The notes under the pieces were generated by a model. The model was not told where the DNA came from. It did no database searches and saw nothing but the letters and a program-made list of their open reading frames with translations. Of a stretch of 64,000 nt of DNA, positions 11,014 to 47,813 are shown piece after piece. Origin of the DNA: Candidatus Aminicenantes bacterium (GTDB lineage: Bacteria; Acidobacteriota; Aminicenantia; UBA2199). The translations under genes were made by a program, and so were the position numbers. Numbering within the stretch: position 1 is the stretch's first letter; every line of letters begins with the position of its first letter. The stretch covers positions 7,573-71,572 of the forward strand of contig CAVSZS010000010.1 in the NCBI GenBank assembly GCA_963732485.1, read 5' to 3'.

Positions 11014-11078
11014 GACATTCCCTCGGACTTGGATTTGCTGCATGATAGCACAAACAGGGGCTGACGCAAAGCCGAGAT

Positions 11079-11107
11079 CAGTGTTAGTGTTAGTGTTCAG
11101 TGTCAGC
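11079..11107. repeat. Stop-rich heptamer microsatellite (GTGTTAG x3-4); inverted partner at 13320-13350
   Basis: cagtgttagtgttagtgttcagtgtcag; reverse complement closely matches ctgacactgacactgacactgatcac at 13320. AT-rich relative to flanks. Confidence 0.6.
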
Positions 11108-11378
11108 AAGAAACTAAAACGATCGGTGTAGGTAGATGGTTTACGGTGTACGTGAAGAGAGAGGAAATCTGAAGTGTAGATTCCAAATCCAAATTCAAAT
11201 AAGAAGCAATTCAAGCTCCAATTCGATATTCCAAAACGAAAGCCCCATGCGATTGCATTTCTTCGTTTGGGGCATTTGGTCATTGGAATTTGAATTTATT
11301 TGGAATTTGGTGCTGTACTGAATTTTATTCTTACCCTACACCTTACGCCTCATACCCTGCGCCGAGTCAAAGCCCTGC

Positions 11379-13270: not shown

Positions 13271-13978
13271 CTAGCTATCACTACCACTATCACTACCACT
13301 CTGTCTTGTATGGCTCTTGCTGACACTGACACTGACACTGATCACTGATCGGTTCGGACTTGATTTCGCTTTGATATCGGGTATTTTCTCCAAAAACAGG
13401 TATATTTCCCGGCAAACCCAGGCGTCGGTGGCGGCATACAGGATCTGGGCCGGGGCCAGCTCGAAACGTTCCCAGTTGGAGCACTGGGCCCCCTTGGAGA
13501 TGCGAAATCCCAGGAGCTGGGCCGCCAGCGTGCGCACGCCGTTGGCCTTGATCCCCTTTTTCGCCGCCATTTTTCCCAGGTCGATAAAGCCGTCCGGAGC
13601 GAAATCCATGATTTCGTGCAGTTTTTCGATGTCACCGTTCACGGCAACGCCGGTCTTGATGACGCGGTCATCAGAAAACAAAGCGTCCAACACATGCACG
13701 TGCTTCACTTTCTTCAATTGCACGAGAAATACCTTCTTTTTGCCGGCCAGCTGCAGCAACGCCGGGGAAAAATGGTCGCCCACCTTGAAGGTCGGCCGGA
13801 TCTCGATATCAAAGCCCAATATCTTTTCGGCAAGGATTTCGGGCATGGCCAAGCGCAGCTTTTCGTCGCCGTCGATGACCGTCACCGGGCCTTCGTATTT
13901 TTTCAGCGGCAGCAGGTTGATGTCGGCCTTGCTGATGACCGGAGCCGGATGCGGGCGTGAGTGGGGTTGTTGTTCCAT
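13271..13978 (-). CDS. 3'-5' exonuclease domain protein (RNase D / DnaQ-like)
   Basis: 235 aa; DEDDy-type motifs (ILGFDIEIRPTF..., YAATDAWVCREIY). C-terminal residues (SVSVSVSKS...SDSGSDS) are translation of the microsatellite at 13275-13350. Confidence 0.65.
   Translation of the reverse strand: MEQQPHSRPHPAPVISKADINLLPLKKYEGPVTVIDGDEKLRLAMPEILAEKILGFDIEIRPTFKVGDHFSPALLQLAGKKKVFLVQLKKVKHVHVLDALFSDDRVIKTGVAVNGDIEKLHEIMDFAPDGFIDLGKMAAKKGIKANGVRTLAAQLLGFRISKGAQCSNWERFELAPAQILYAATDAWVCREIYLFLEKIPDIKAKSSPNRSVISVSVSVSKSHTRQSGSDSGSDS
13275..13350. repeat. Stop-rich microsatellite block (CTATCACTACCACT x2; TGACAC/TGATCAC x5)
   Basis: ctatcactaccactatcactaccact ... ctgacactgacactgacactgatcactgatc; overlaps the 3' end of the exonuclease gene. 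Confidence 0.6.
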
Positions 13979-14004
13979 GGAGGGGTCATTGTAGCATAAG
14001 AGAA

Positions 14005-14033
14005 GTCAGTAGTCAGTAGACAGTAGTCAGTAG
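14005..14033. repeat. TCAGTAG heptamer repeat arm (agtcagtagtcagtagacagtagtcagtag)
   Basis: Period-7 repeat placing TAG in all three frames; same family as 15071, 39248, 40446, 43243. Confidence 0.65.
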
Positions 14034-15013: not shown

Positions 15014-15070
15014 GGCGGAAGTATAGCGCAGAAAAATAAAACATGGCAAGTCAGGAAAAAAGTAGTCAGT

Positions 15071-15255
15071 AGCCAGTAGTCAGTAGTCACTAGAACAGCA
15101 GCTCAACGAGCTCTATTCTGTACAACCGCCAAGGGCCCGATCCTAAAAAAAATTTAGTCAGTAGAACAGCTAGTGCACGCTCCTACTAGCCACTGACTAT
15201 GCTCTTCCGAGATTGCTCGCTTCTACTGACTACTGGCTACTGACTACTGTCTACT
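15071..15255. repeat. MITE/BIME-like inverted-repeat element built of TCAGTAG heptamers (33-bp arms, 119-bp spacer with nested imperfect palindrome)
   Basis: Left arm agtagtcagtagccagtagtcagtagtcactag (15071-15103); right arm ctactgactactggctactgactactgtctact (15223-15255) is its reverse complement. Near-identical copy at 43243-43350. Confidence 0.7.
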
Positions 15256-15315
15256 CTCTTTCGTTTTTCCTTATTGACAGGACCGCCGATTACTGATATA
15301 TCAGATATCAGAACA

Positions 15316-16229
15316 ATGGCCATGAAGGGCATGATTTTCGATATCAAAAAATTCGCCGTGCATGACGGCCCGGGCATCCGCAGCACCGTTTTTTTCAAAG
15401 GCTGCCCCCTGCGCTGCCTCTGGTGCCACAACCCCGAGGGCATATCCCCGGCCCGGGAGATCATGGTCTTTTCCGGCCGCTGCCTCAAGGGCTGCCGCGA
15501 CTGCCTGGCCGTCTGCCCGCGGGGGGCGCTGGACAAGCGCCGCGGCGCCATCGTCCTCGACCGCTCGCGCTGCGACGGCTGCGGCGCCTGCGCCGACGCC
15601 TGCGCAGCCGAAGCGCTGCAGGCGACGGGGCGGGAAATGAGCGTCAGCGCGGTGCTGGACGAGCTGGCCAGGGACGCCCCTTTTTATCGCGAATCTGGCG
15701 GCGGCGCCACGTTTTCCGGCGGCGAGCCCCTGCAGCAGCCCGAATTCCTGCGCGAGCTCCTGCGGGCCTGCCGCGGGGAAAAGATCTCCACCGTTGTCGA
15801 CACTTCGGGCCAGGCGCCGTATTCAGACTTCGCGAGCATCCTGCCCCTGGCCGACCTGTTCCTCTTCGACCTGAAGATCGTGGACGACGCCCGCCACCTG
15901 ACGCCTGACCGGCGCCTCCAACCGCCTGTTGCTGGCGAACCTGCAAACGCTTTCCCAAGCCGGCGCGCCGCTGGCCGTCCGCCTGCCGCTGGTCCCCGGC
16001 TGCAACGACGCGATTCGCGACCTGGAGCAGGCTGGCCGACTTTTGCGCCGCCCTGCCCCGGCGCCACCCGGTCCATCTTCTCCCGTATCACCGCGGCTAT
16101 ACCGGCAAGCTCAAACGCCTGGGCCGCGACGCGGCGCTCGACGCCACTCTGCCCCCCAAGGCGTCGGACGTGGAGCAGGCCGCCAATATTTTTCGCGCCC
16201 GTGACCTGATCGTAACCATCGGAGGCTGA
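15316..16229 (+). CDS. Glycyl-radical enzyme activating enzyme (radical SAM, PflA-like) carrying two apparent single-base frameshifts (~15900 and ~16033)
   Basis: N-term MAMKGMIFDIKKFAVHDGPGIRSTVFFKGCPLRCLWCHNPE (CxxxCxxC) plus ferredoxin-like Cys clusters. Continues in frame +1 (RLTGASNRLLLANLQTLSQAGAPLAVRLPLVPGCNDAIRDLEQ), then a third frame (LADFCAALPRRHPVHLLPYHRGYTGKLKRLGRD...IVTIGG*) ending TGA 16227-16229. Confidence 0.6.
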
Positions 16230-16230
16230 C

Positions 16231-18601
16231 ATGAACGCCAGGATCAAGAAACTGCGCGCCCGCTCGCTGCGGGCTGTTCCCGCCCTGTCCAGCGAGCGCG
16301 GCCGCCTGCTGACCCGCTATTACCGCAGTGGCGCCGCCGACGGCCTCTCCGTCCCTCGCCAGCGCGCCGGCGCCTTCGCCTTTCTGCTGGCCAACAAGAA
16401 GATCGCCATCCTCCCCGACGAGCTGATCGTCGGCGAACGGGGCCCGGCGGCCAAGGCCACGCCATCCTACCCCGAGATCACCTGCCATTCCCTGCGCGAC
16501 CTGGACGTGCTGGACAGGCGCGAGAAGACCCGCTTCCGGGTCAGCGCCGCGGTCCGCCGCGATTTCGCCGCCGAGATCATCCCCTATTGGCGCGGCAAGA
16601 CCATGCGCGAGAAACTGTTCGCGCACATGGCGCCCGAATGGCTGGCCGCCTACGAGGCGGGAGTGTTCACCGAGTTCATGGAGCAGCGCGCCCCCGGCCA
16701 CACCGTCTGCGGCGAAAAGATCTACGCCAAGGGGCTCCGCGACCTGCAGGCCGAGGTCCGCGCCAGCCTGGCGGCCCTTGATTTCCTTGCCGACCCGCAG
16801 GCGCTGGCCAGGCAGGAGGAGCTGCAGGCCATGGAAACGGTCGCCGAAGGCATGATCGTGTTCGCCGGCCGCCACGCCGCCAAGGCGCGGCAATTGGCCG
16901 CGCGCGAGAAGAACGCCGCCCGCAAGCGGGAATTGCTGCGCATCGCCGCTGTCTGCGAGCTCGTGCCCGCCAATGCCCCGCGCGACTTCCACGAGGCGCT
17001 GCAGCACTACTGGTTCATCCACCTGGGCGTCATCAGCGAAGCCAATCCCTGGGACGCCTTCAATCCCGGCCGCCTCGACCAGCATCTTCTCCCCTTTTAC
17101 CGCCGCGGCCTGGCCGACGGCAGCCTGACCCGCGAAAAGGCCCGCGAACTGCTGCAGGCCTTCTGGGTGAAGTTCAACAACCACCCCTCGCCGCCCAAGA
17201 AGGGGGTCACGGCCGAGGAGAGCGGCACCTACACCGACTTCGCCCTGATCAACACCGGCGGCGTCGACCCCGAGGGCGAGGACGGCGTCAATGAGGTCTC
17301 GTTCCTGATACTGGAAGTGATCGAGGAGATGCGCCTGCTGCAGCCCAGTTCCATGGTGCAGGTGAGCCGCAAGAACCCCGACGCCTTCCTGCAGCGGGCG
17401 CTGAAGATCGTGCGCAGCGGCTTCGGCCAGCCTTCGCTCTTTAATTCCGAGGCGCTGGTGGCGGAAATGCTGCGCCAGGGCAAGTCGCTGGCCGACGCCC
17501 GTTGCGGCGGCGCCTCGGGCTGCGTGGAGACCGGCGCCTTCGGCCGCGAGGCGTACATCCTGACCGGCTACTTCAACCTGGTCAAGGTGCTGGAGATCAC
17601 CCTCAACAACGGCCGCGATCCGCTCAGCGGCAAACGGATCGGCCTGGAGACGGGTGACCCCGAAAGATTCCCGGACTTCGCCGCCCTGCTGGCCGCCTTC
17701 GAGAAGCAGCTGCGCCATTTCGTCGACATCAAGGTGCGCGGCAGCAACATCATCGATCGCCTCTACGCCCGCGACCTGCCGGTCCCCTTCCTCTCGCTGC
17801 TCATCGACGACTGCATCGCGACTGGCAAGGACTACCACGACGGCGGCGCCCGCTACAACACCTCCTACATCCAGGGTGTGGGGCTGGGAACGACCACCGA
17901 CGCCCTGAGCGCCATCCGCAGCCAGGTGTACGATGAAAAAAGCCTGTCCATGAAAACCCTGCACAAGGCGCTGGCCGCGAATTTCCGCGGCAACGAAAAA
18001 ACCCGCCAGCGGCTGCGCAACAAGTCGCCGCGCTACGGCAACGACGACGACCGCGCCGACGATATCACGCGGGCGCTGTTTGAAATGTTTTTCCGCGCCG
18101 TCGATGACCGGCCCAACATGCGCGGCGGCCGCTACCGCATCAACCTCCTGCCCACCACGGTGCACATCTATTTCGGCAGGAAGACCGGCGCCACCCCCGA
18201 CGGGCGCAAGGCCGGCGAGCCGCTTTCCGAGGGCATCTCGCCGGTGCAGGGCGCCGACCGCTGCGGCCCCACGGCGGTGCTCAAGTCGGCGGCCAAGATC
18301 GACCACCTGCGCACCGGCGGCACGCTGCTCAACCAGAAGTTCACCCCGCAGCTCCTTGCCGGCGACGAGGGCATCGCGCGCCTCGGGCCACCTGGTGCGC
18401 GCCTATTTCGGCATGAACGGCCATCACGTGCAGTTCAACGTGGTCGACGCGGCCACCCTGCGCGCCGCCCAGGCGCACCCCGAGAAATACCGCGACCTGA
18501 TCGTGCGCGTGGCCGGCTACAGCGATTACTTCGTCGACATCGGGACGGATTTGCAGGAAGAGATCATCGCGCGCACCGAGCACCAGGAGTTTGGCGAATA
18601 A
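16231..18601 (+). CDS. Glycyl radical enzyme, PFL2/glycerol-dehydratase-like (eliminase type); frameshift near 18385
   Basis: ATG 16231 with GGAGG 5 nt upstream. ~790 aa with GRE fold; Cys-x-Glu active-site loop (CGGASGCVETGAFG); C-terminal glycine-radical motif RVAGYSDYF appears only in the +1 frame after ~18385 (HLVRAYFGMNGHHVQFNVVDAATLRAAQAHPEKYRDLIVRVAGYSDYFVDI...). Extra G in a ctcgggcc run. Confidence 0.7.
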
Positions 18602-18636
18602 CCGGATTTATTAAAGACTCTTTCTTCCACTCGATT

Positions 18637-19107
18637 CTATTCTAGTTTTTTAAAACGCTCAGCTTCCTCATAGTTACCTAAACTTTCGCAAATTTGTGCC
18701 GCTTCTTTAAAACGCCTTTCGTTTTCCAATCTAGTCAGGTAGAACAATTCAATTTCATTTTTATAAACCTGACTCCAATTATAGACACTTCCATTATGAG
18801 ATGTGCGACTATATCCGCTCAAAGCCATTTCGTAAAAACTCTTCTCTTTTCTAAGTTTTCTTATATCATTAACAATAGTTATCAAACCAACCTTGTCAAA
18901 ACAAATAATAGATGTTTTTATGCCCAGTTCCCTTTCTATTGTCGGATGATATTTTTCGGGAATATCAGAGCCATATGCAGCAAGAATTTTCCTGTTCTCA
19001 GAATTCTCTAAAAGTCCAGCTAGAGTCGAATTCATTTCTTCAGTTATTTTTCTGCAAAACTCAACATCGTCTTCAATCTTCTTAGCATTTTTCCTAAATA
19101 TGCTCAT
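18637..19107 (-). CDS. Hypothetical protein on an AT-rich (~35% GC) island; no recognizable domain
   Basis: 156 aa from ATG 19105-19107 (MSIFRKNAKKIEDDVEFCRKITEEMNSTLAGLLENS...). The longer track ORF extends into the adjacent lipoprotein gene and is trimmed. Composition differs strongly from the ~65% GC flanks. Confidence 0.45.
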   Translation of the reverse strand: MSIFRKNAKKIEDDVEFCRKITEEMNSTLAGLLENSENRKILAAYGSDIPEKYHPTIERELGIKTSIICFDKVGLITIVNDIRKLRKEKSFYEMALSGYSRTSHNGSVYNWSQVYKNEIELFYLTRLENERRFKEAAQICESLGNYEEAERFKKLE

Positions 19108-19219
19108 TAATTTAATATATAATGAAACATGAGATGTTGTCAAATTTAGATATTTTTGCGATAAACGTTGGGAAAACAGGAAGGCACGCCAACGCAGATG
19201 AATGAGTCGAGAATTAGCT

Positions 19220-19933
19220 TTATTGTTGCAGCTTAGCGAAACGTAGTGTGATCGACCCAAAGGTCTTTTCCCCTTCATCGTCCTTGACTGCGAATTGGAT
19301 ATCGATGCTTTCTCCAAGTTTTTCAACTGCATCCACATCAAGCTTCCAAGTAAGGAGCCCCGTAGTGGGATCAAGGATGATATTCTGGTCCAGGGGTGAA
19401 ACAAGCTCATAAAAAAGCATGTCGCCGTCGGGATCGCTGGCAGCCACCTTATACTGGATATTTCCGGGAACTTCAAACGCTGCCATCGGGGCCAAGTTGA
19501 GGATGGGCAGGGAATTGCGAACGCGAATGATATCGCTGCGGTGAAAGGGAGAGTCCTGCCGGCCGGCCACGACTCTGGCTTGGCAAAAGAGCCAAGCCCC
19601 TTTTTTCAGGCTGGACTTCTGCATGGTATCGCCGTTGGCCTGCTCGACCTCATGGCCGTTGATGAACCACTGGTATTGGAACTCGACGTTCTCTCTTCCG
19701 GGACTGGCCAGCACCGGCACGGCCGTGACGTCATCCAGTACGGAGGGAGCCTCAGGCGTAAGGGTGAGCGAAATGATGCGCAGGCTCGCATCACCTTTAG
19801 AAGAGACGATTGGCGCTCGCAAGGGCGCGTTTTTTTCTTGATCCAGAATCTGCTGCGCAGAGTTCGCCTTGCCTTTCGAGCAGGATAAAAAGGCCAAAAT
19901 CAGCATGAGAACACCCAGGAATGCATTCTTCAT
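19220..19933 (-). CDS. Exported lipoprotein with cadherin-like/Ig-like (He_PIG-type) domain
   Basis: Signal peptide + lipobox (LAFLSC); C-terminal LFYELVSPLDQNIILDPTTGLLTWK motif typical of putative Ig/cadherin-like domains. SD GGAGGT 8 nt upstream of ATG. Confidence 0.6.
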   Translation of the reverse strand: MKNAFLGVLMLILAFLSCSKGKANSAQQILDQEKNAPLRAPIVSSKGDASLRIISLTLTPEAPSVLDDVTAVPVLASPGRENVEFQYQWFINGHEVEQANGDTMQKSSLKKGAWLFCQARVVAGRQDSPFHRSDIIRVRNSLPILNLAPMAAFEVPGNIQYKVAASDPDGDMLFYELVSPLDQNIILDPTTGLLTWKLDVDAVEKLGESIDIQFAVKDDEGEKTFGSITLRFAKLQQ

Positions 19934-36710: not shown

Positions 36711-37957
36711 AGCGCGCCCTGACCTGCGGCTGGTTCACCCTGCAGCGCCAGGAAGCCGAGATCGCTTCCGCCATGGCCGAATTGCAGGCCCTATGCCGCG
36801 CCGCCGGGGCAACGGTGGTCGGGCAGGCCTGGCAGAAGCGCCCGGTCCCCGACCGCCGTTTCCTGGTCGGGATGGGCAAGGTAGAGGAACTCAAGCGCCT
36901 GGCCGGCGTGCACAACGCCGGGCTGGTCGTGTTCGACAATGTCCTGACCACCCTGCAGCAACGCAACCTGGAAGAGGAACTTGGGCTAAAGGTTATCGAC
37001 CGCAGCCGCCTGATCCTTGACATCTTCGCCTCCCGCGCCCGCAGCCAGGAGGGCAAGCTCCAGGTCGAGCTGGCCCAGCTGCTCTACCTGCTGCCGCGCC
37101 TGACCGGCAAGGGCGTTTCACTCTCGCGCCTCGGCGGCGGCATCGGCACGCGCGGCCCCGGCGAAAGCAAGCTGGAGACCGACCGCCGGCAGATCAAGGT
37201 CAAGATCACCCGCATCCGCCAGAAGCTGAAGGGAGTGACGCGCAACCGCGACCTGCAGCGCCAGAACCGCCGCGCGCTGCCCGTGCCCCTGGTGGCCCTG
37301 GTCGGCTACACCTCGGCCGGCAAATCGACCCTGTTCAAGGCCCTCACCGGCGAAAACGTCTTCATCTCCGACCAGCTGTTCGCCACCCTCGATCCCCTGC
37401 TGCGCCGCGTCGACCTGCATGATTCCCACCCCGGTTATTATTTCATCCTATCCGATACCGTGGGCTTCATCCGCGACATGCCCGCCGAGTTGTTCACCTC
37501 CTTCACCGCCACCCTGGAAGAAGTGCGCCAGGCCGACCTGGTGCTGCACGTGGTCGACATGACCAACCCCGACTGGCAGGGGCAGAAGGCCGAGGTGGAG
37601 AAGGTCCTGCGCCAGATGGCCGTCGACGCTGCCAGGCTGGTCGTGGTTTTTAACAAGATCGACCTCTGCGCCGACGGCGAGAGCCTGGGCGACAGGGGCG
37701 AGCCCGGCCAGGTATACGTCTCCGCCACCCGCGGCACCGGCCTGGCGACGCTGAAAGAGGAAATCTTCAAGCGCTATTTTTCCGATTACGGTGCCTATAC
37801 CGTAGACGTGGAAGACGAGCAGCAATTGGACGCCCTGAGCCGCTGGGCCATCGTGCTGGAAAAGAACCGCGTCGAGAACGGCTACCAGGCCGCGGTTTTA
37901 TGTTCGCTGGAAAAAATGCTACAATTCAGGGAATCTCACGGAGGTGTGATCCGATGA
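36701..37957 (+). CDS. hflX: GTPase HflX
   Basis: HflX N-domain (GKVEELKRL...), G-domain [31 protein letters not shown]; 10-nt overlap with miaA; no hfq between. Confidence 0.85.
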
Positions 37958-39252
37958 AAGCGATCCTGCCGGCAGCGCTCATCCTGTTTTTCGTCGCCTG
38001 CGGCGGCGTGAAGCCCGTCACTGTCGATTTCCATCTCCCGGCCGTCGAGAGCGGCACATTCCTCGACTCGTACTATCGCCTGGGCTGGGAGCAGCTGCGC
38101 CAGGGCGACAGCGAGTCCGCCTACCGCTCCTTCCAGCTCAGTGAAGCGCCGCTGGACAAGAAGCAGGCCGCGTTCGGCTACGTTTTCCTGGCGCGCAAGA
38201 AATTCAGCGCCGCCGCCGACCAGTTCGCCAACTCATTGGCGACCAATCCCGGCAACATCGAGGCCGGCATGGGCCAGGCCATGATCCTGGAACTCGAGGG
38301 GCGCATGGCCGAAGCCTACCGCGCTTACGGCGACCTGGCGCTCAAGGCCGCCGATGACGCCTGGATCAAGCTGAAATACGAGTCGATCCGCTCGAGTTCC
38401 ACCCAGGGCCACCTGCTGGAGGCGGAGCGCGTGAAAGCCACTGACAAGGGCAAGTATATCCGCGAGCTGGAGCAGGCGGCCTTCTTTTCCCCCGATCTGG
38501 CCGCCATCACCCTGCAGATCGCCGACCATTACTACAATGAAGGCGACTGGCGGCGCAGCCTGCCGTATTACGAAGCCGTTCAGGAAAAAGAGCCGTACAA
38601 CGAGGCCGTGCTGCTGAAGCTGGCGGCGCTCTATGAAAAGAAGGAAAATTTCGACCTGGCCATCGTCACCCTGGACCGCCTGCTGGCGCTGAAAGCCGGT
38701 GACCCCTTCCTGGAAGCCGAGAAGCAGCGGGTACGCGAACGCTTCCAGGAGCTGACCCTGCCCGAAAAGTTCAAGAAGATATTCTTCAAGGCCGAGATCA
38801 ACCGCGAAGAACTGGCGGCGCTGGTCGGCTTTTATTTCGAGCGCCATATCGCGCTCGACCTGGCCCCGGAGATCCTCACCGACATCGACGGCTCGTTCGC
38901 CCGTGAGCAGATCATCAAGACCGTGACCGCCGGCATCATGCATGCCCGCCCCGACCACACCTTCCAGCGCTTCGCCGCCCCCGACCGCGCCGCCTTCGCC
39001 GCCACGCTGAACGCCCTGATCGATTACCTGAAGGGCAAGGGGCGCGAACTGCGCTTCACGCCGCTGTCGCCGGCCCCGCTCATCGCCGACCTCTCGCCGC
39101 TGCACAAGGATTTCCAGGGCATCTCCTCGCTGGTCAATTCCCAGGTGCTGGCGCTCGACAGCCAGGGCAATTTCAACCCCACAGACCCCGTCGCCCCCGG
39201 CGAGGTCATTACCGCTCTCAAGAAGATCTTGAACGCAATAGAGAATCAGTAG
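37954..39252 (+). CDS. TPR-repeat lipoprotein
   Basis: [18 protein letters not shown] (lipobox FVAC), multiple TPR-like repeats; ATGA overlap with hflX stop. Confidence 0.6.
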
Positions 39253-39289
39253 CTAGTAGTTAGTAGATAGTAGTTAGTAGACTGTAGGA
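39248..39289. repeat. Heptamer repeat arm (TAGTAG family: cagtagctagtagttagtagatagtagttagtagactgtagg)
   Basis: Inverted partner at 40446-40478; the pair brackets the lower-GC gene 39543-40226. Confidence 0.65.
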
Positions 39290-39542
39290 AGGCACTAGAC
39301 GATTTCGAAGAAAGAATTATTTGTAGGGAAAATTGACCTGCTCCCATTACTTCATTCCCTCCGATGTAATAATGAAAGACCTGATCCCAATGCCACGTGA
39401 CCCCAATCCCACACGAGGGCGCAAACCATCCTGGTAAAACCTGGGGATGAGCCCTAAGCTCCATTCTTGACTTTTGGATGCCCCCGGCATACCATCAGGA
39501 TTGAAATACGTAGCCCGTCTGACACAGCACGAGGAACTCATC

Positions 39543-40226
39543 ATGATCAAAACCTATTCATGGGTCGCCCTATGGATCACCCTGATGACGGCCGGTCTGG
39601 CCGCAAGCAAAAAGCCGGCGGTCATCTCTCTAAAAGATTTCACATCCGTGAAAGAATGGGTCCTGGAAATCACCTGGCATGCCAAGGACAACTTCGAAGA
39701 CAGTGACTTCAGCGCCAAGCTGGACATGAGCGCTAGCGCCCGGTTTTACCTCAAAAGACTGGATCATCAGGACGCCTGGGGCCGCTGGGAAGTCCAAAAA
39801 CTGCAGACATCAAATCTGGTCTACAAGGCAAACCTCATCGACAAGCGCAGGGGCCAAGGCCTCGATTACCAAGGGCTTTCGACCCCGCCCCTCATGTCGG
39901 TGGCCAATTTCCAGGTGGGCGGGGAAACCCCGGGCTACCAATTGGCCTGCCAAGTGATGTTCCCGGCTCAGGTAAAAGGCCCCCCCCTGGGCAGCATGGA
40001 CTCTCCCCTGATGCTCACGACCACCCAAATGGGGCCTAAACCCGTTTTTTGCACAGGCCCCCTTCCAGAATCCGGCACCACCATCTCCGGCAGCGCCGTC
40101 ATCCAAGCTGCCGTCACACCCTTCGGCACCAGCCGGGCACCGCAAACCCGAGTTGGGATTCAGTATGTCCTTAAGCCATACATCGAGCTGGCGCCCCTTA
40201 CCCCACTCAAAAAACCCAAGCGTTGA
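39543..40226 (+). CDS. Hypothetical secreted protein (signal peptide, no known domain), lower GC (~50%) than flanks
   Basis: MIKTYSWVALWITLMTAGLAASKKP...; bracketed by inverted heptamer-repeat arms at 39248 and 40446. Confidence 0.5.
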   Translation: MIKTYSWVALWITLMTAGLAASKKPAVISLKDFTSVKEWVLEITWHAKDNFEDSDFSAKLDMSASARFYLKRLDHQDAWGRWEVQKLQTSNLVYKANLIDKRRGQGLDYQGLSTPPLMSVANFQVGGETPGYQLACQVMFPAQVKGPPLGSMDSPLMLTTTQMGPKPVFCTGPLPESGTTISGSAVIQAAVTPFGTSRAPQTRVGIQYVLKPYIELAPLTPLKKPKR

Positions 40227-40445
40227 GACCTGTCTTTTCGAAGAGCCTAAGGAACACCGGGGTCACGTCTCCAGATTCCAGAAATCAGCATCTCGATTCA
40301 CCTCGGTATTTCATCCCCAGCATTTCTCCAATCTCACGTAAACCTAGAGCCGTGTGTTTCCGCAGCCGATGCATGAACATTCTCGATAGTGCAACAATCG
40401 ATGAAAATTGACAATTTATAATACCTAGTTCGTTCAGTCCCTCTT

Positions 40446-40478
40446 CTACTGACTACTGACTACTGACTACTGACTACT
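40446..40478. repeat. CTACTGA heptamer repeat arm (x4.5), reverse orientation of TCAGTAG
   Basis: ctactgactactgactactgactactgactact. Confidence 0.65.
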
Positions 40479-40518
40479 TTCTTCCTGCAATCTGCCGCTG
40501 GACGCGGCAAGCGGTTTG

Positions 40519-42401: not shown

Positions 42402-42440
42402 GGGTAAAAAAAAAGGGCGGCTTTTTCGGCCGCCCTTCCG
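42402..42440 (-). terminator. Rho-independent terminator between convergent deaD and Met-rich gene (strong for minus strand, hairpin shared)
   Basis: Minus-strand transcript AAGGGCGGC-cgaaaaa-GCCGCCCTT followed by TTTTTTTTTACC. Confidence 0.7.
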
Positions 42441-42461: not shown

Positions 42462-43184
42462 TTATTTTCCGCGCATGTCGTCCATGGAGAGGGTTTTCTG
42501 CTTGCTGAAGCCGACGGGCACGGAATAGGTTCCGGCCGGGGCGGGCTTCTGGGAGATCTCCACGACCTGGCTGGCTACGCGCATCTTGCTGCCCATCATG
42601 TCCATGGACATTTCCGAAGCCACCTGGAAGCCGGCGATCTTGGCGAACTCGGCGATGGCCGCGTCGTCCATGAACTGCATCTTGGAGACGTTGCTGTACA
42701 TCTTGGTGAATATTCTCCAGTCAAAGGGCACGTCGGTGGAGGCCCAGACCTTCATCTTCATCTGCATCATCATCATGTTCATGTCCACGTCATAGCCGGC
42801 GCAGTTCCACTGGCTGATCCTCTTGGTCTGGCCATTGGCATTGACCTTGACCGTCACCTTCATCATGTTGGCCATGGAGGCGGCTTCCGGGGGCAGGAGC
42901 TTGGTCATATCCAGCGGCAGGGCCGTTTCCACGTAGTTCTTGTCCTTCAGGTTGACGACATACATGAGCTTCTTGGTCATGTCCATGATCATCACCCTGT
43001 CGCCGGTCCTGTTGGCCAGCTGATTGTTGTTCAGCCACTGCTCGGTCACTTCGTCCTTGGCAGGCTGGTTCTGGCCCATCATGGAGAAGGCGTCGGTGTG
43101 GACGTTGGTCTTGATATACACGTCGGCGGGCAGCAGCAGCGCTATTGCCAGGACGACAATCACCATAAATAATGCTTTTTTCAT
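42462..43184 (-). CDS. Methionine-rich (~12% Met) secreted/periplasmic protein, DUF4412-like; possible Cu(I)-binding or Met-sink protein
   Basis: Signal peptide MKKALFMVIVVLAIALLLPA; Met clusters MNMMMMQMKMK, MSMDMMGSKM, MANMMK. Confidence 0.55.
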   Translation of the reverse strand: MKKALFMVIVVLAIALLLPADVYIKTNVHTDAFSMMGQNQPAKDEVTEQWLNNNQLANRTGDRVMIMDMTKKLMYVVNLKDKNYVETALPLDMTKLLPPEAASMANMMKVTVKVNANGQTKRISQWNCAGYDVDMNMMMMQMKMKVWASTDVPFDWRIFTKMYSNVSKMQFMDDAAIAEFAKIAGFQVASEMSMDMMGSKMRVASQVVEISQKPAPAGTYSVPVGFSKQKTLSMDDMRGK

Positions 43185-43242
43185 GATTCCTCCTTGAGAA
43201 CGGAAATCATAGCCCCGGGAGCTGGTTTTGTCAAGAAGGAGA

Positions 43243-43350
43243 GTAGTCAGTAGCCAGTAGTTAGTAGTCAGTAGAACGACAAAGAATTGGACTGTACACT
43301 TGCATTTCGTCCAGTTCTCGCAACTACTGTCTACTGACTACTGACTACTT
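43243..43350. repeat. Second copy of the MITE/BIME-like TCAGTAG inverted-repeat element (33-bp arms, 49-bp spacer)
   Basis: agtagtcagtagccagtagttagtagtcagtag ... ctactgtctactgactactgactact; left arm differs by ~2 nt from 15071-15103. Confidence 0.7.
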
Positions 43351-43482
43351 TTCCTGCTTTGAAACTTTTTGCCCTTTTCATGCGTATTATATTTGGAAGA
43401 AGAAGGAAGGGTTGGCTTCGTACCCCCCCTCTCCCTCCTGAAGGCCTATTGCTTCCTTCTTCTTCCATTCATTCCGACCTCA

Positions 43483-43700
43483 GTGAAAAGTGATTAGTGA
43501 AAAGTGATTTGTAAGAGCCAAACAAAAATCCCTTCGATCTCCTATCTGAACTAAGTGAAAAGTGATTAGTGAAAAGTGATTTGTCAAAACCAAAGAGCAA
43601 CTACTTCGATCACCAGCACGATTGAAATTTATTCTGTTTGATTGCCGCTTCTCTCTACTTTTTACTTTTCACTTTTCACTTTTCACTAATTCTTTGCTTT
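43483..43700. repeat. Tandem ~70-bp duplication each containing GTGAAAAGTGATTA x2, plus inverted partner CTTTTCACTTTTCACTTTTCACTAAT
   Basis: Copies at ~43483-43545 and ~43554-43615; inverted arm 43655-43700; stop codons in all six frames. Confidence 0.65.
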
Positions 43701-43710
43701 CGACGCTCTC

Positions 43711-43740
43711 TTGACACCCATTCGTCATTCCCCCATAATC
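43711..43740 (+). promoter_or_regulatory. queF promoter; predicted leaderless or near-leaderless transcript
   Basis: TTGACA (43711-43716) - 18 nt - CATAAT (43735-43740); ATG at 43746 only 5 nt downstream; no SD. Confidence 0.5.
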
Positions 43741-43745
43741 GGACC

Positions 43746-44147
43746 ATGAAAATAGAAGACATTACGAAATACCTGCAATCCATCCGCCAGGACGCTTTTT
43801 TCATCGACTACGACGTGCTGGAGACCGAGCCCTTCGACAACAAGGACAAGGAAACCAAGGTGGAGATCGTCAATCCCGAGTTCACCTCGCTCTGCCCGCG
43901 CACCGGCCTTCCCGATTACGGCACCATCCGCATCCGCTACACCCCGGAAAAACTGATCGTCGAATTGAAATCCCTCAAGTATTATTTCCTGCAATACCGC
44001 AACGCCGGCATATTCTACGAAAGCCTGTGCAAGCTGATCCTCAAGCACCTGGTCAAGAAAGTGCATCCCGTCGAGATGACGGTCGAGGCCGAGTTCACGC
44101 CCCGGGGCGGGTTGACGACCAAGGTCATTTCGAGCTACAAGAAATAA
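43746..44147 (+). CDS. queF: NADPH-dependent 7-cyano-7-deazaguanine reductase
   Basis: 133 aa; QueF signature EFTSLCPRTGLPDYGTIRIRY (Cys nucleophile). Confidence 0.85.
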   Translation: MKIEDITKYLQSIRQDAFFIDYDVLETEPFDNKDKETKVEIVNPEFTSLCPRTGLPDYGTIRIRYTPEKLIVELKSLKYYFLQYRNAGIFYESLCKLILKHLVKKVHPVEMTVEAEFTPRGGLTTKVISSYKK

Positions 44148-44320
44148 GAATCCGTAATTCGTAATTCGTAAACCGTAATTCGAGAAGAGTTGTTATTGCG
44201 GACTACAAGAAATAAGAATCCGTAAATCGTAATTCGTAAGCTGTAATTCGAGAAGAAATGTTTTTTGCTCGCGTGTTTTTCTTTTCTTCCGAATCACTAA
44301 TCACGAATTACGAATCACTT
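44135..44320. repeat. Tandem 68-bp duplication spanning the last codons of queF (CGTAATT heptamers) plus inverted partner
   Basis: ctacaagaaataagaatccgtaattcgtaattcgtaaaccgtaattcgagaaga (44135-44188) and 90%-identical copy (44203-44256); inverted arm cgaatcactaatcacgaattacgaatcac (44288-44320). Confidence 0.65.
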
Positions 44321-44331
44321 AGTTCCTATCA

Positions 44332-45975
44332 TTAAAGCTCCCTCGCCATCCACGCTTTCCTGCCGCGGCGATAGTAATACGCGATCAGGACGGCGTTGAA
44401 CAGGAGAAAGCCGGCGAACCAGGCGCTGATCTCGGCATAGGGAACGGCCTGGCGGGTGAAGCGCTGCCAGTAGAAGAGCCCCACCGGCCGCACCAGCATG
44501 AGAATGCCGCCGACCAGGTAGATCATGCTCCAGAGCATATAGGAGATGCCCTGCTTGGAGACGATCACGTGCTCGGGCGACAGCGGGTTGGTCTCGTTGG
44601 TCTCGATGCCCAGCACCAGGGAAAGGACGGTCAGGAAGACGATGGCCGGAGTCAGGAAGAACAGGGCCATGACGCGCGTGAAGGCGTCGAAATGCAGGGC
44701 CAGGTCGCCCAGGGCGTAGAGAGCGAAGCCGACGAACAGCAGCGGCAGCAGATGGAACAGGAGTTTGAAGCGGTAGAATTTCAACTTGTCGACAGGTGAG
44801 CTGAAGATGTGGACCTGCCCGGGGCCCTCGCCGGGGATGGAGGTGAAGGTGAAGCGCGAGTTCAAGCCGGAGACGATGAAGACCGCCATGATCAGATTCA
44901 GGTAGGAAACAAAATTCTTTACCGACGGATGCGGCAGGGGAATCATTTTCATGTTGATGACGAAAACGGCAACCAGGGCGCCGACGATGAGCAGCTGCGA
45001 CCATTGCGCCGGCGTGCGCAGGAAAGTCTTGATCTCCTTGCGCAGCAGCGGCCGGTAGCCGCCCCGGGGGTCCAGCGGTCGCCAGCGCGACTTGTAGTAG
45101 CCCTTGCCGCCCCGGTTCAGTTTGTCGAACAGCTGCAGGTAGAACTTTTTGCGCAGCCAGACAACCAGCGCCAGCAGGGCGGCGACCAGCATGACGAAAA
45201 GGCCGATGGTCTTCCAGAAGGGAACGCTGCGGCCATCGGCGCTCAGGCTCATCGCCCTGGCCAGCCATGAGAATGGGAAATAATAGAAGACCTTCAGGTC
45301 CAGGGAGCCCATGTATTTCAGCACATTGTCGATTTCGCTCGGTTCCAGAAACCGCTCGGGCCGCAGCAGCCGCAGAAAGACCACGATGGAGGAGATCAGG
45401 ATGATGGAAAACACCGAGAGCACCGGCTGCAGGCGGCGCACCGAAAAAAAAGCCGGGATGATCAGCCCGAGCGCGATCCCGGCCAGTACCCCGCAGGCGA
45501 TGAAAAGCAGGAAGGCCAGCAGCACCTGCATGACCTGGCCGAATCCGGGAGCGAAATAACGGCAATAGAAAAAGAGGATCGGCAGCGAAAAGAAAACCAC
45601 CATGGCCGAGCTGTAGGTCGTGGTCTCCAGCATTTTCCAGGCAAAGGCGCTGCGGATCGGCAGGGGCGTGGAAAAGAGGAAATGCAGGTCGCGCGATATG
45701 AAGAACACGTCGAGCGCGGTCAGCAGCGCCGAGAGCAGCAGCATGGAAAACAGGGTCATGAAGATCATCATCAGCAGCTTTTCGGCCAGGAACACCCTGA
45801 AGACCCGGGGAAACTCCTGGACCTGCGCCAGGTAGCCGAAAATCTTGTAGAAGAAAAATCCGAGCACCAGCATGAAAAAAATCCCCAGCAGCAGGAACAG
45901 GATGTATTTTTTCTTTTCGCCGCGCACCAGGGCGTTGCGCAGCTGATGATATTTAAGCTTCAGCAGACTTTTCAT
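44332..45975 (-). CDS. Polytopic membrane protein, putative ABC-2-type exporter permease
   Basis: 547 aa, ~12 TM helices; 23-nt overlap with upstream ABC ATPase gene. Confidence 0.55.
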   Translation of the reverse strand: MKSLLKLKYHQLRNALVRGEKKKYILFLLLGIFFMLVLGFFFYKIFGYLAQVQEFPRVFRVFLAEKLLMMIFMTLFSMLLLSALLTALDVFFISRDLHFLFSTPLPIRSAFAWKMLETTTYSSAMVVFFSLPILFFYCRYFAPGFGQVMQVLLAFLLFIACGVLAGIALGLIIPAFFSVRRLQPVLSVFSIILISSIVVFLRLLRPERFLEPSEIDNVLKYMGSLDLKVFYYFPFSWLARAMSLSADGRSVPFWKTIGLFVMLVAALLALVVWLRKKFYLQLFDKLNRGGKGYYKSRWRPLDPRGGYRPLLRKEIKTFLRTPAQWSQLLIVGALVAVFVINMKMIPLPHPSVKNFVSYLNLIMAVFIVSGLNSRFTFTSIPGEGPGQVHIFSSPVDKLKFYRFKLLFHLLPLLFVGFALYALGDLALHFDAFTRVMALFFLTPAIVFLTVLSLVLGIETNETNPLSPEHVIVSKQGISYMLWSMIYLVGGILMLVRPVGLFYWQRFTRQAVPYAEISAWFAGFLLFNAVLIAYYYRRGRKAWMAREL

Positions 45976-46690
45976 GGTCCAGCACCGTCTGGAAATAAAA
46001 CTCCTCCAGGGTCCCCTGTCCGGCCAGGGACATCAGCTCCTCCAGCCCGCCCTGGACAATGATGCGGCCGTCGACGATGACGCCGATGCGCCGGCATACT
46101 TCCTGGGCCAGGGTGAGGATGTGGGTGGCGAATAGGACGGCCGTGCCCCGGCCGGCGACTTCCTTGAGGTATTTCTTGAATTTTTTCCCGACCAGCGGGT
46201 CGATGGAGACCAGCGGCTCGTCGAGCAGCAGCAGCTTCGGTTCCACGGCCAGGGCCTGGGCGATGAGCAGCTTCTGCCGAGTGCCGGCCGAGTAATTCTC
46301 CACCAGCTCTGTCCGGTACTCCTCGAACTCGAAATACTTGAAAAAGAAATCGATCTTTTCCCGGCGTTTGGCATAGGGGATCTTGTACAGGTCGGCGTAG
46401 AAATTCAGGTGCTCTTCGCCGCTCAGCTTGTTATACAGGAACGGCTGGTCGGGAACATAGGCGATCGACCGTTTCAGCTCGTGGTGTTCGCGATGGTACG
46501 CCTGGCCATCGACGACGACGCGCCCCGCATCCGGGGCCAGCAGGCCGGCCAGGATCTTCAGCGTGGTGGTCTTGCCCGCCCCGTTCGGACCCAGCAGCCC
46601 GTAGATTTCGCCGGGCGCCAGGGAGAACGTGACGTCCTTCAGCGCTTCCCTATTGCCGAATTTTTTTTGTAAATTTGTAACGTGGAGCAT
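45953..46690 (-). CDS. ABC transporter ATP-binding protein
   Basis: MLHVTNLQKKFG..., Walker A GPNGAGKTT, signature LSGGEHL-like (YSAGTRQKL), Walker B LLLLDEP, H-loop ATHIL. Confidence 0.8.
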   Translation of the reverse strand: MLHVTNLQKKFGNREALKDVTFSLAPGEIYGLLGPNGAGKTTTLKILAGLLAPDAGRVVVDGQAYHREHHELKRSIAYVPDQPFLYNKLSGEEHLNFYADLYKIPYAKRREKIDFFFKYFEFEEYRTELVENYSAGTRQKLLIAQALAVEPKLLLLDEPLVSIDPLVGKKFKKYLKEVAGRGTAVLFATHILTLAQEVCRRIGVIVDGRIIVQGGLEELMSLAGQGTLEEFYFQTVLDHEKSAEA

Positions 46691-46855
46691 ACGGGCATTG
46701 TAGCATATCGAAGAATAAAGCGAACTACGTGACGCGTGACGCGCCCGGTTGCCGCATCGTTGTTGACAAATTTGTTTCCGTGTGGGAACCTCCAACCTTG
46801 AAAGGAGGAGCCGAATGGCGTTACATGAGTCATGTTCATATTTCGGGTTAACTCA

Positions 46856-47746
46856 ATGCCCCAGATGAAAAACTTTCTTTTCTTCTGTTTGCTGCTTTTG
46901 GAAACCGCCGCTTTTCTTTCTGCTACAATAAAGCATGAATTTCAACTTGCGCTGCACTACTCTATGCCCTTTTTTGATTATCAATTTCAGAATAACGTTC
47001 AACCCCACTTGCTATATAGCGATCCCCTCAGCTCTTCATCAAAACAGACCTTGAACTTCAATGAGCAAAATCAAATACAATTCTCCATGGCCTATAATCT
47101 TTTTTTCTCATCCCGGAACGGAATGCAGATAAAATTCACTGCCGGTTCTGGTCGCTTGGATGGTGAAAATTCCGATGTTGCCCTTAGCCTTGATTATATT
47201 GGCCACCAGCCGCCCTCCTATGAACCGAAGGAAACCCACTACCAGGATGCTCTGGCATGGCCTGCAACTGAAGGAAAAGTCACGCATACTGCTTTAAGCC
47301 TTAATTATCTGCACAGTTTTCAGCTCCATAACGCCTTGCAGTTAAGGACATCAGCCGGATTTTCCCTTGCCAGCCAATCACTTAATTTCAAGTATCTTGC
47401 GTATACCGGATTCATTTTAGGCGGCCACTCCGTTTTATTTGTGGACACCTATATGCTTGAAGCTTTGGGTAAAAATATTGTCCAGCCGGGAATAAACGGT
47501 TCCCTGCAACTGGTTATTAAACTCTCTTCCCGGATCTCGTTTTTATTTGATTCAGAAATTATTCTTACTCCTTTGCGAAATATTTCATTGCAAATTTCCG
47601 ATCAGGCACTGTTATATCCAGACACTCCCATAACGTTAACCCGGGATAATTTGCAGGAAATAAACACGAGCATGCCAGTAGCTCCCTTAAAATATAATGG
47701 TTCCAGATGCAGCGCGAATTTTGGCCTGCTGATCAAATTAAATTAA
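46856..47746 (+). CDS. Hypothetical exported protein, possibly outer-membrane beta-barrel; AT-rich (~42% GC) island
   Basis: Signal peptide MPQMKNFLFFCLLLLETAAFLSA (alternative start ATG 46865); alternating amphipathic beta-strand pattern; low GC vs flanks. A 17-codon uORF with perfect AAAGGAGG SD (46815-46868) ends in ATGA at 46865. Confidence 0.45.
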   Translation: MPQMKNFLFFCLLLLETAAFLSATIKHEFQLALHYSMPFFDYQFQNNVQPHLLYSDPLSSSSKQTLNFNEQNQIQFSMAYNLFFSSRNGMQIKFTAGSGRLDGENSDVALSLDYIGHQPPSYEPKETHYQDALAWPATEGKVTHTALSLNYLHSFQLHNALQLRTSAGFSLASQSLNFKYLAYTGFILGGHSVLFVDTYMLEALGKNIVQPGINGSLQLVIKLSSRISFLFDSEIILTPLRNISLQISDQALLYPDTPITLTRDNLQEINTSMPVAPLKYNGSRCSANFGLLIKLN

Positions 47747-47813
47747 TTTAAAACCATAAAATCTATCGGTCTTCATTCAAACTACTTATTGCTATAAAAG
47801 TTTTTTAAATTCT

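Follow-up and report, generated by a model that had tools for sequence, protein, structure and literature searches.

A stretch of 64,000 nucleotides from a Candidatus Aminicenantes bacterium (hereafter the window, meaning the whole stretch analysed) contains at 15061-15255 an intergenic element made of two inverted arms of tandem (N)CAGTAG heptamers, and identical arms enclose genes of the PF05635 family (S23p, the 23S rRNA intervening-sequence protein, Avd-like) in other genomes. The element is best explained, with about half of our confidence, as a module without open reading frames (ORFs) that belongs to a widespread intergenic class of palindromes and resembles either the intervening sequences (IVS) of 23S rRNA genes or repetitive extragenic palindromic (REP) elements. 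Modules of this class would have convergent tandem heptamer arms, purine-rich and C-poor when read inwards and pyrimidine-rich when read outwards, around a free and fast-changing centre. The class would take in the GGGAATC pairs of Xanthomonas and the MTYCTGA pairs of Geobacter, and its 'loaded' form would carry a PF05635 gene in the hairpin loop, as the 23S rRNA IVS does.

Heptamer arrays and inverted pairs in the window

Repeats were located with Tandem Repeats Finder and by direct reading of the sequence. Seven (N)CAGTAG arrays were identified, forming three inverted pairs (modules 1 to 3) and one solo array, all of them intergenic and low in GC in a window of 60% GC. A two-unit probe (TCAGTAGTCAGTAG, up to 2 mismatches) matched the window 22 times, compared with 0.05 matches expected from shuffled sequences. 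The arrays and the centres that they enclose are listed below, with the strand in brackets.

14001-14033 (+), solo array of the CAGTAG family between tRNA-Glu and the 3'-5' exonuclease gene
15061-15093 (+), module 1 left (5') arm, units AGTAG, TCAGTAG, CCAGTAG, TCAGTAG and TCACTAG (AGTAGTCAGTAGCCAGTAGTCAGTAGTCACTAG)
15094-15222 (no strand), module 1 centre, 129 nt, with an internal sub-hairpin that includes partial copies of the arms (ttagtcagtag ... ctactagccactgacta)
15223-15255 (-), module 1 right (3') arm, units CTACTGA, CTACTGG, CTACTGA, CTACTGT and CTACT
39246-39287 (+), module 2 left (5') arm, degenerate AGTAGNT units
40446-40480 (-), module 2 right (3') arm, perfect (CTACTGA) x4.7; the pair encloses 1.16 kb
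43242-43349 (no strand), module 3: left arm 43242-43274 (+), centre 43275-43322 (48 nt), right arm 43323-43349 (-)

The strong hairpin potential attributed to the element in the original prediction, which was made from the letters of the window, was confirmed. The arms of module 1 are complementary at 26/26 positions (15061-15086 against 15223-15248), and the predicted fold of 15055-15262 reaches -80 kcal/mol (z = -8.3); a second inverted arm comparison in the window extends over 36 nt with 81% complementarity. Both copies described originally are real, and the repeat family is indeed dispersed in intergenic DNA, with all seven arrays between genes. However, the first copy lies at 15061-15093, 10 nt from the stated 15071-15103, the second, at 43242-43274, is displaced by 1 nt, and the inverted partners, said to be 49-119 bp away, are separated from them by spacers of 129 nt instead of 119 and of 48 nt. 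Three more CAGTAG-family arrays (14001-14033, 39246-39287 and 40446-40480) had been overlooked, and so had further families of heptamers and hexamers, similarly arranged, around queF and at 11.0-11.4 kb. TAG occurs in every frame of the 5' arm, as had been stated; the companion statement that the other strand has TGA in every frame applies to units with T at the variable position but not to CTACTGG and CTACTGT, which have no stop.

Arms around PF05635 genes and polarity across bacteria

In about 3 Mb of fetched loci only three PF05635 genes were found, each framed precisely by a CAGTAG arm on the left and a CTACTG arm on the right:

L138, 220-640
L233, 1278-1771
L033, 716-1173

The left arm of L138 is identical to window positions 15061-15086 over 26 nt. 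S23p homologues chosen regardless of repeats were also flanked by inverted heptamer arms:

Pyrinomonadaceae locus with a tetratricopeptide repeat (TPR) gene, S23p and carA, CAGTAG arms
S23p-dprA locus, L474, 1380-1930, Geobacter-type TCAGAAG/CTTCTGA arms
L481, L483, L484 and L491, about 1400-1900, and L492-L524, further PF05635 loci, included in the proportions below

Heptamer arms flanked all of the close PF05635 loci (5/5), and inverted tandem-repeat arms flanked 68% of the distant ones (viral contigs, n=25) compared with 1% of 400 random pseudo-genes. At the distant loci the arms were mostly 7-mers belonging to many families, with a purine-rich 5' arm. The protein family is large, as the search scored 8,000 candidates, all of them significant. 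In the literature we found no report of PF05635 genes in heptamer-arm loops outside rRNA genes. That identical arms enclose S23p genes elsewhere suggests a testable function for the element in the window.

The CAGTAG arms themselves are widespread. The pattern (CAGTAGN)x3 was present at at least 120 loci of a species-representative genome set, with matches in Pyrinomonadaceae and other Acidobacteriota, Planctomycetota, Verrucomicrobiota, Bacteroidota, Chloroflexota, cyanobacteria (Microcoleus, Tychonema) and Mesorhizobium, and on at least 120 viral contigs; the exact 20-mer AGTAGTCAGTAGCCAGTAGT occurred on at least 120 metagenome contigs of 28-70% GC. The arrays, whose absence from the rest of the genome and from relatives would have spoken against the original prediction, occur in relatives and at no fewer than 120 loci per public collection. 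Close pairs were arranged as 5'-(NCAGTAG)n…(CTACTGN)n-3' in 130 cases and in the opposite way in 4, with a median spacer of 46-64 nt (counts of pairs, spacings, gene ends and centres in other genomes, here and below, are those among the matches listed). Three permuted control cores gave 26-39 viral loci each and were rarely paired; CAGTAG arrays were at least 3-5 times commoner than these and were paired in 40% of cases, compared with 3-23%. At gene-length spacing, CTACTG upstream and CAGTAG downstream of genes ('-+', 41 cases) prevailed over the reverse ('+-', 9 cases).

The same polarity was seen in other heptamer families, where the purine-rich, stop-bearing arm was the 5' arm in 15 pairs and the 3' arm in 1. 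Carrier genomes contained several heptamer families each, and 218 of their 254 short-period arrays had period 7. CAGTAG polarity was also found in divergent contexts, where no filter by ORF extension operates. The seventh, variable base gave a mixed picture, some arms mirroring each other perfectly and others having been homogenised independently; its mirror symmetry was considered as proof of selection for pairing and rejected, since the base was often not mirrored. A literature search for CAGTAG/CTACTG strings returned only primer matches.

Turnover of modules and their fit between genes

The homologues of GntR and QueF indicate that the window derives from an Aminicenantes-like member of the Acidobacteriota. 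Orthologous loci were retrieved through homologues of window genes (labels L...), and their state is compared with the window below.

GntR/activase spacer (conserved flanks): CAGTAG arms in the window; CAGTAG arms with an unrelated centre in L127 (85% GntR identity)
GntR/activase spacer: a single direct GTTCGAN array in L125
GntR/activase spacer: 350-450 bp of other REP-like palindromes in L121 (98%) and L122/L123 (90%)
14001 solo array: present in the window; the same array with one unit fewer in L121
43242 module: arms and 48-nt centre in the window; arms kept in L130 and L132 with centres of 46 and 104 nt, all centres unrelated; no module in L131
39246/40446 pair: 1.16 kb enclosed in the window; the same arms with a centre of about 100 nt in L130
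5' of queF: AGTGAAA arms in the window; AGTGAAA family in L130; GCAAGGY family in L132
queF 3' end: AATTCGT arms in the window; GCGTGAC arms in L130/L132; AGTGATG arms in L131

The arms are retained, but the centres, the number of units and even the family of the repeat change, and a given gene boundary usually keeps a module of one family or another. Unit numbers of the arms differ in L127, L130 and L132, and the queF 3' end has been occupied by three heptamer families across four lineages. The pair 39246/40446 is a true module whose centre received an insertion in the window. This insertion of 1,075 bp (39338-40412, + strand), absent from L130, is bounded by a 10-bp direct repeat (GAAAATTGAC, at 39328-39337 and 40403-40412) and contains an ORF of 227 aa (39543-40226) that looks secreted, has no Pfam match and has promoter-like sites of its own; neither terminal inverted repeats nor a transposase was found in 39338-40412. 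Replacements and insertions have their hot spot in the module centre.

The REP-like palindromes at the site of module 1 (GGGGGTGAGTTG...CAACTCATCCCC; CCCTTCTCTT..AAGAGAAGGGG) occur in 3-4 copies in these close relatives (L121 9540-9990; L122 5400-5760; L123 1-420).

At the level of DNA the arms behave as simple-sequence repeats, with copy-number change, tandem duplication and partly independent evolution. This extends to other short-period families in the window, among which two modules bracket queF:

43482-43690 (no strand), AGTGAAA/AGTGATT module directly 5' of the queF promoter, left arms 43482-43509 and 43553-43581, right arm ACTTTTC/ACTTTTT 43657-43690
44149-44318 (no strand), AATTCGT module at the convergent queF/ABC gene junction, left arms 44149-44182 and 44217-44250, right arm CGAATCA/CGAATTA 44290-44318
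11078-11362 (no strand), nested inverted short-period arrays between the MTHFR and tRNA-U5-methyltransferase genes, variable among relatives, with AGTGTT hexamers, outer arms GGTGTAG... / ...CTACACC and inner arms TCCAAAT / ATTTGGA

A tandem duplication of about 72 bp (43474-43617) copied an AGTGAAA/AGTGATT-family arm with its flank, and another of 68 bp (44137-44272) copied an AATTCGT arm with its flank and thereby repeated the last codons and stop of queF (ctacaagaaataa).

The modules of the window fill exactly the spare DNA between stop codons and promoter -35 boxes. Module 1 lies between the divergent promoters of the GntR gene (minus strand) and the glycyl-radical-enzyme activase gene; its left arm starts 12 nt from the -35 box of the former and its right arm ends 18 nt ahead of the TTGACA of the latter. 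The right arm of module 2 is about 20 nt 5' of a promoter-like site of the DEAD-box helicase gene, and module 3 adjoins the -35 box of the minus-strand promoter of the DUF4412 gene. Read from the minus strand, the solo array 14001-14033 has a CTGACT unit that forms the -35 hexamer of a promoter-like site of the exonuclease gene (CTGACT-17-TACAAT), and the upstream TPR gene (37900-39252) uses the first TAG of array 39246-39287, at 39250-39252, as its stop codon. In other genomes, too, the stop codon of the gene lay in or at the array, as one of its TAGs, in 75 of 131 cases, and solo arrays at gene 3' ends had CAGTAG on the sense strand in 55 cases and on the other in 12. Stops were present in the 5' arm of 12 of 20 families, compared with 11.8 expected from composition. 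The stop block is therefore inseparable from the purine-rich, C-poor bias of the 5' arm, and a stop-codon block as the primary selected trait was rejected.

Bidirectional termination, one of the roles originally suggested, does not suit the copies in the window, as divergent promoters flank two of the three pairs and no intrinsic terminator (GC-rich stem-loop followed by a T-run) was called at any window module. A canonical bidirectional terminator is present at 42411-42439 and ordinary terminators are used elsewhere in the window, none of them at a module. In other genomes about 18-21% of the centres had a classic GC-rich stem with a 5' A-tract and a 3' T-tract and about 80% had no terminator features, so a terminator in the centre was rejected as a general explanation, applying to about one fifth of modules and to none in the window. 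A similar GC-rich terminator core (GGCGGCGCGC...GCGCGCCGCC) with A-tract and T-tract recurs in CAGTAG modules of six loci of Pyrinomonadaceae and other Acidobacteriota (L005, L036, L044, L058, L090 and L109), which may form a repeated sub-family of arms plus terminator.

Several further features of the window were noted. Between module 3 and the queF module, 43350-43472 contains a promoter-like TATTAT box followed, 5' of queF, by a conserved hairpin with a C-rich loop (GGAAGAAGAAGGAAG...CTTCCTTCTTCTTCC), which L130, L131 and L132 keep despite differences in their heptamer modules; it had no Rfam match and is a candidate small RNA or leader. At the gathering threshold Rfam identified just two tRNAs and no rRNA in the whole window, and in E-value mode 43150-44400 gave sub-threshold look-alikes of miRNA hairpins and no known RNA family. 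At 13271-13350 (arrays 13275-13348), CTGACA and CTATCA/CTACCA hexamers fall inside the exonuclease ORF, at its 3' end, and specify a tail of the type ...SVSVSVS...SGSDSGSDS; this region differs in relatives, so the real stop may be further upstream. The activase (15274-16209) and glycyl-radical-enzyme (16231-18645) genes show a frame switch near their 3' parts, the true C-terminus of the latter (...RVAGYS...) being in another frame and ending near 18603, a sign of long-read indel errors or of pseudogenes; relative L121 shows similar fragmentation. Two islands of low GC (38-43%; 18561-19424 and 46619-47881) that have no flanking heptamer arrays carry ORFs with no Pfam match (18637-19476, minus strand, and 46832-47746, plus strand) and were likely acquired horizontally.

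Known systems, rival explanations and significance

The statement in the original prediction that the architecture is not a described family was wrong, because the class has been described in Xanthomonas (Rehm et al. 2015, PMC4692102) and Geobacter metallireducens (Aklujkar et al. 2009, PMC2700814 Additional file 9), and the inverted-repeat stem of the Coxiella 23S rRNA IVS, which contains heptamers (Warrier et al. 2016, PMC4990558), is a further precedent. In Xanthomonas campestris and X. axonopodis there are 70-75 convergent GGGAATC heptamer pairs per genome, intergenic and mostly of about 4 units, with the G-rich strand in sense orientation right behind the upstream stop codon; species differ in array length but not in type, single or paired (PMC4692102). 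The CAGTAG modules share with them the tandem-heptamer, intergenic and convergent architecture, on opposite strands, with the purine-rich strand inwards and an upstream stop codon nearby. The Xanthomonas units contain G-tracts and have been read as quadruplex-forming, whereas NCAGTAG has no GG(G) run, and the S23p link, the turnover of centres and the cross-phylum reach of the CAGTAG modules were not reported for Xanthomonas in PMC4692102. In Geobacter metallireducens, eight pairs of 'class 3 putative global regulator binding sites' consist of five tandem MTYCTGA units each on opposite strands, 75-110 bp apart (PMC2700814 Additional file 9). Their polarity is like that of CAGTAG (left TCAGxAx, right xTxCTGA), the units ATTCTGA and CTCCTGA are 1-2 bases from CTACTGA, and Geobacter-type CTTCTGA arms flank the PF05635 gene in L474; the sites were read as IHF/HU-type binding sites, in one genome and without comparative data (PMC2700814).

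The closest functional precedent comes from rRNA genes. In the 23S rRNA IVS of Coxiella burnetii, 2-3 tandem GACAGAT heptamers, a number that varies by strain, stand ahead of the S23p ORF in the 5' arm of the stem, and RNase III cuts at the first of these repeats, excision being proven (PMC4990558). The IVS of Coxiella and Leptospira have a long inverted-repeat stem with a PF05635 ORF in the loop and are regarded as selfish (PMC4990558). The modules of the window have the inverted-repeat stem with tandem heptamers; in contrast to the IVS, which occupy helix 45 or 25 of 23S rRNA, they lie between protein or tRNA genes and contain no PF05635 ORF, although modules elsewhere that share their arms do carry one.

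REPs and bacterial interspersed mosaic elements (BIMEs) of enterobacteria and pseudomonads are extragenic, often follow stop codons or lie in operons, form inverted pairs with short linkers and give hairpin transcripts; they are insertion targets, differ in presence or absence between strains, and REPs are tied to REP-associated tyrosine transposases (RAYTs). The original comparison with REP/BIME elements holds for this niche, since the modules are also extragenic inverted pairs with short linkers, often after stop codons, and L121-L123 have REP-like palindromes at the very site of module 1. A REP unit is, however, itself an imperfect palindrome of 20-40 nt, whereas each CAGTAG arm is a direct array of 7-nt units and the module is palindromic only as a pair; no RAYT (Y1) transposase was evident among the ORFs examined in the 64-kb window. 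The TAACTGA repeats of Beggiatoaceae and the short tandemly repeated repetitive (STRR) heptamers of cyanobacteria are intergenic tandem heptamers with a patchy distribution across phyla (MacGregor 2015, PMC4679880), and heptamers were the dominant long simple-sequence repeats according to Mrazek (2007, as cited in PMC4679880). CAGTAG arrays resemble both classes in their tandem 7-nt units of at least 3 copies, intergenic position, several families per genome and copy-number change between strains, and resemble the STRR/TAACTGA repeats in having stops in all frames in one orientation. The latter are, unlike the CAGTAG modules, mostly long solo direct arrays or placed directly 5' of start codons, with one inverted pair reported in a Beggiatoa genome.

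If the modules are IVS-like or REP-like, the arms, where transcribed, would pair into an RNA stem of 26-35 bp that could serve as a substrate of RNase III, by analogy with the heptamer stem of the Coxiella IVS, for which this was demonstrated experimentally; judged from sequence, such a stem length is compatible with excision by RNase III. The stem would also block read-through, and the 5' arm would place UAG in all three frames ahead of it. Several observations weigh against this explanation. Neither a PF05635 gene nor a remnant of one was detected by tblastn or hidden Markov model (HMM) searches in the window or in 13 loci of relatives; the idea that the centres are decayed S23p genes was rejected on the same grounds, and the link to the S23p-loaded form therefore rests on shared arms and not on a demonstrated common ancestry. 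Two of the three window pairs lie between divergent promoters and are transcribed by neither flanking promoter, and copies so placed, such as 15061-15255, are probably untranscribed passengers. Because the variable seventh base is often unmirrored between arms, arm pairing is not the sole constraint and possibly not the main one, and the conserved hexamer core hints at sequence recognition. Rapid turnover, finally, is equally compatible with no host function at all.

An explanation without any function is possible though unlikely. The modules would then be a mutational by-product, slippage arrays of neutral spacers that were inverted by hairpin-templated strand switching and grew until they met constrained sequence, with breakage at the palindrome centre and sloppy repair renewing the centres. 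Copy-number change, tandem duplications, family swaps and centre replacement among close relatives are what such a process would leave, as are modules that fill exactly the space between functional sites, stops at the frequency predicted by composition and arms homogenised independently. It fits less well with the same hexamer core and polarity in many phyla from 28 to 70% GC, with CAGTAG being commoner and more often paired than three permuted control cores, with the specific association with PF05635, and with a polarity kept in divergent contexts where ORF extension exerts no filter. A boundary device selected by the host, acting as bidirectional terminator or insulator with a 5' arm that halts ribosomes in three frames before they melt the stem, appears doubtful. 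The terminator stems in about a fifth of the centres elsewhere, the arrays adjoining stop codons with CAGTAG mostly on the sense strand and a purine-rich 5' and pyrimidine-rich 3' arm polarity like that of the window terminator at 42411-42439 would agree with it; yet the window modules have no GC stem with T-run, two of them lie between divergent promoters with nothing to terminate, the genome has ordinary terminators elsewhere, most centres in other genomes have no terminator features, and the stop content is explained by composition.

Operator arrays, in which the heptamer would be the site of a small polymerising DNA-binding protein (omega/ribbon-helix-helix, IHF/HU or pentameric S23p) that regulates or insulates the flanking promoters, are a possibility that we rate as rather improbable. 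Arms end 12-20 nt from -35 boxes, the solo array gives the -35-like CTGACT, and the hexamer core is conserved with a free seventh base in about 4-5 units per arm. The neighbouring AATCACT/TTTCACT (43482-43690) and AATCACG (44290-44318) units match the heptad WATCACW of the omega repressor of inc18 plasmids; TCAGTAG does not fit it, and the match is probably a coincidence. Regulator binding was also proposed by the Geobacter authors (PMC2700814). However, many cognate proteins would be needed, because many families per genome are swapped at one site between close relatives; most modules elsewhere are at gene 3' ends and not at promoters, and no candidate binding protein is encoded beside the window copies. 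Other conceivable roles are a Chi-like safeguard for a broken palindrome centre, priming by DnaG at CTA/CTG trinucleotides, Rho utilisation, a RelE preference for CAG/UAG codons, and a cruciform that absorbs supercoils between divergent promoters. A MITE (miniature inverted-repeat transposable element) in the strict sense, as originally envisaged, would be a non-autonomous transposon with heptamer-array terminal inverted repeats and a transposase encoded elsewhere, and is highly improbable even though the arms are inverted (26/26 complementary), of fixed polarity (130:4), dispersed, intergenic and present as variants common to several loci (e.g. AGTAGTCAGTAGCCAGTAGT). A conserved interior is absent, with about 6 similar pairs among 110 distinct centres and orthologous loci that keep arms but not centres; no target-site duplication was found at arm boundaries in the window or at orthologous filled, empty and replaced sites; solo arms are common; and gene-length spacing is mostly '-+', with no transposase in any of the nine far-spaced '+-' pairs of the fetched loci, three of which enclose PF05635 genes. 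As centres are unrelated and neither target-site duplications nor, in the fetched loci, a transposase-bearing partner was found, the modules are not classical MITEs. Chance similarity or a low-complexity assembly artefact, a worry raised with the original prediction, has a negligible probability. Two window genes do have frameshifts typical of long-read assemblies, but the probe matches far exceed expectation, each of three public collections holds at least 120 loci, and an artefact is excluded because the same arrays occur at orthologous sites in the independent Illumina and long-read assemblies of relatives.

Within the IVS-like reading a more specific proposal can be made, to which we attach little credence. 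Paired heptamer hairpins (STRR-like, GGGAATC, class-3 and CAGTAG) might be the dispersed, ORF-less form of one selfish IVS family whose loaded form carries the pentameric PF05635 protein. This protein would recognise arms of about five units and, with a reverse transcriptase or nuclease in trans, create or spread them, for instance if a 7-nt template were copied repeatedly onto 3' ends. If true, such a mechanism would explain the telomere-like fixed polarity together with unrelated centres, and would provide a common answer to the 35-year-old puzzle of heptamer repeats and to the orphan S23p family.

Among long simple-sequence repeats of bacteria, tandem heptamers are the most frequent, and to our knowledge no function has been accepted for them since their description in cyanobacteria in 1990. 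New here are the polarity of CAGTAG across phyla, the persistence of arms with turnover of centres and families, the insertions into centres, and the S23p genes between arms. Annotators should be aware that such modules make up the intergenic DNA of these genomes and supply stop codons and -35-like hexamers to neighbouring genes. The analysis connects heptamer arrays with S23p/PF05635, an orphan family of proteins that is very large. Across phyla the polarity of the arrays is strictly inward, arms last longer than the centres between them, and S23p genes are typically flanked by such arrays, as in the 23S rRNA IVS excised by RNase III. The polarity rule and the link to S23p make the old puzzle of the heptamers testable.

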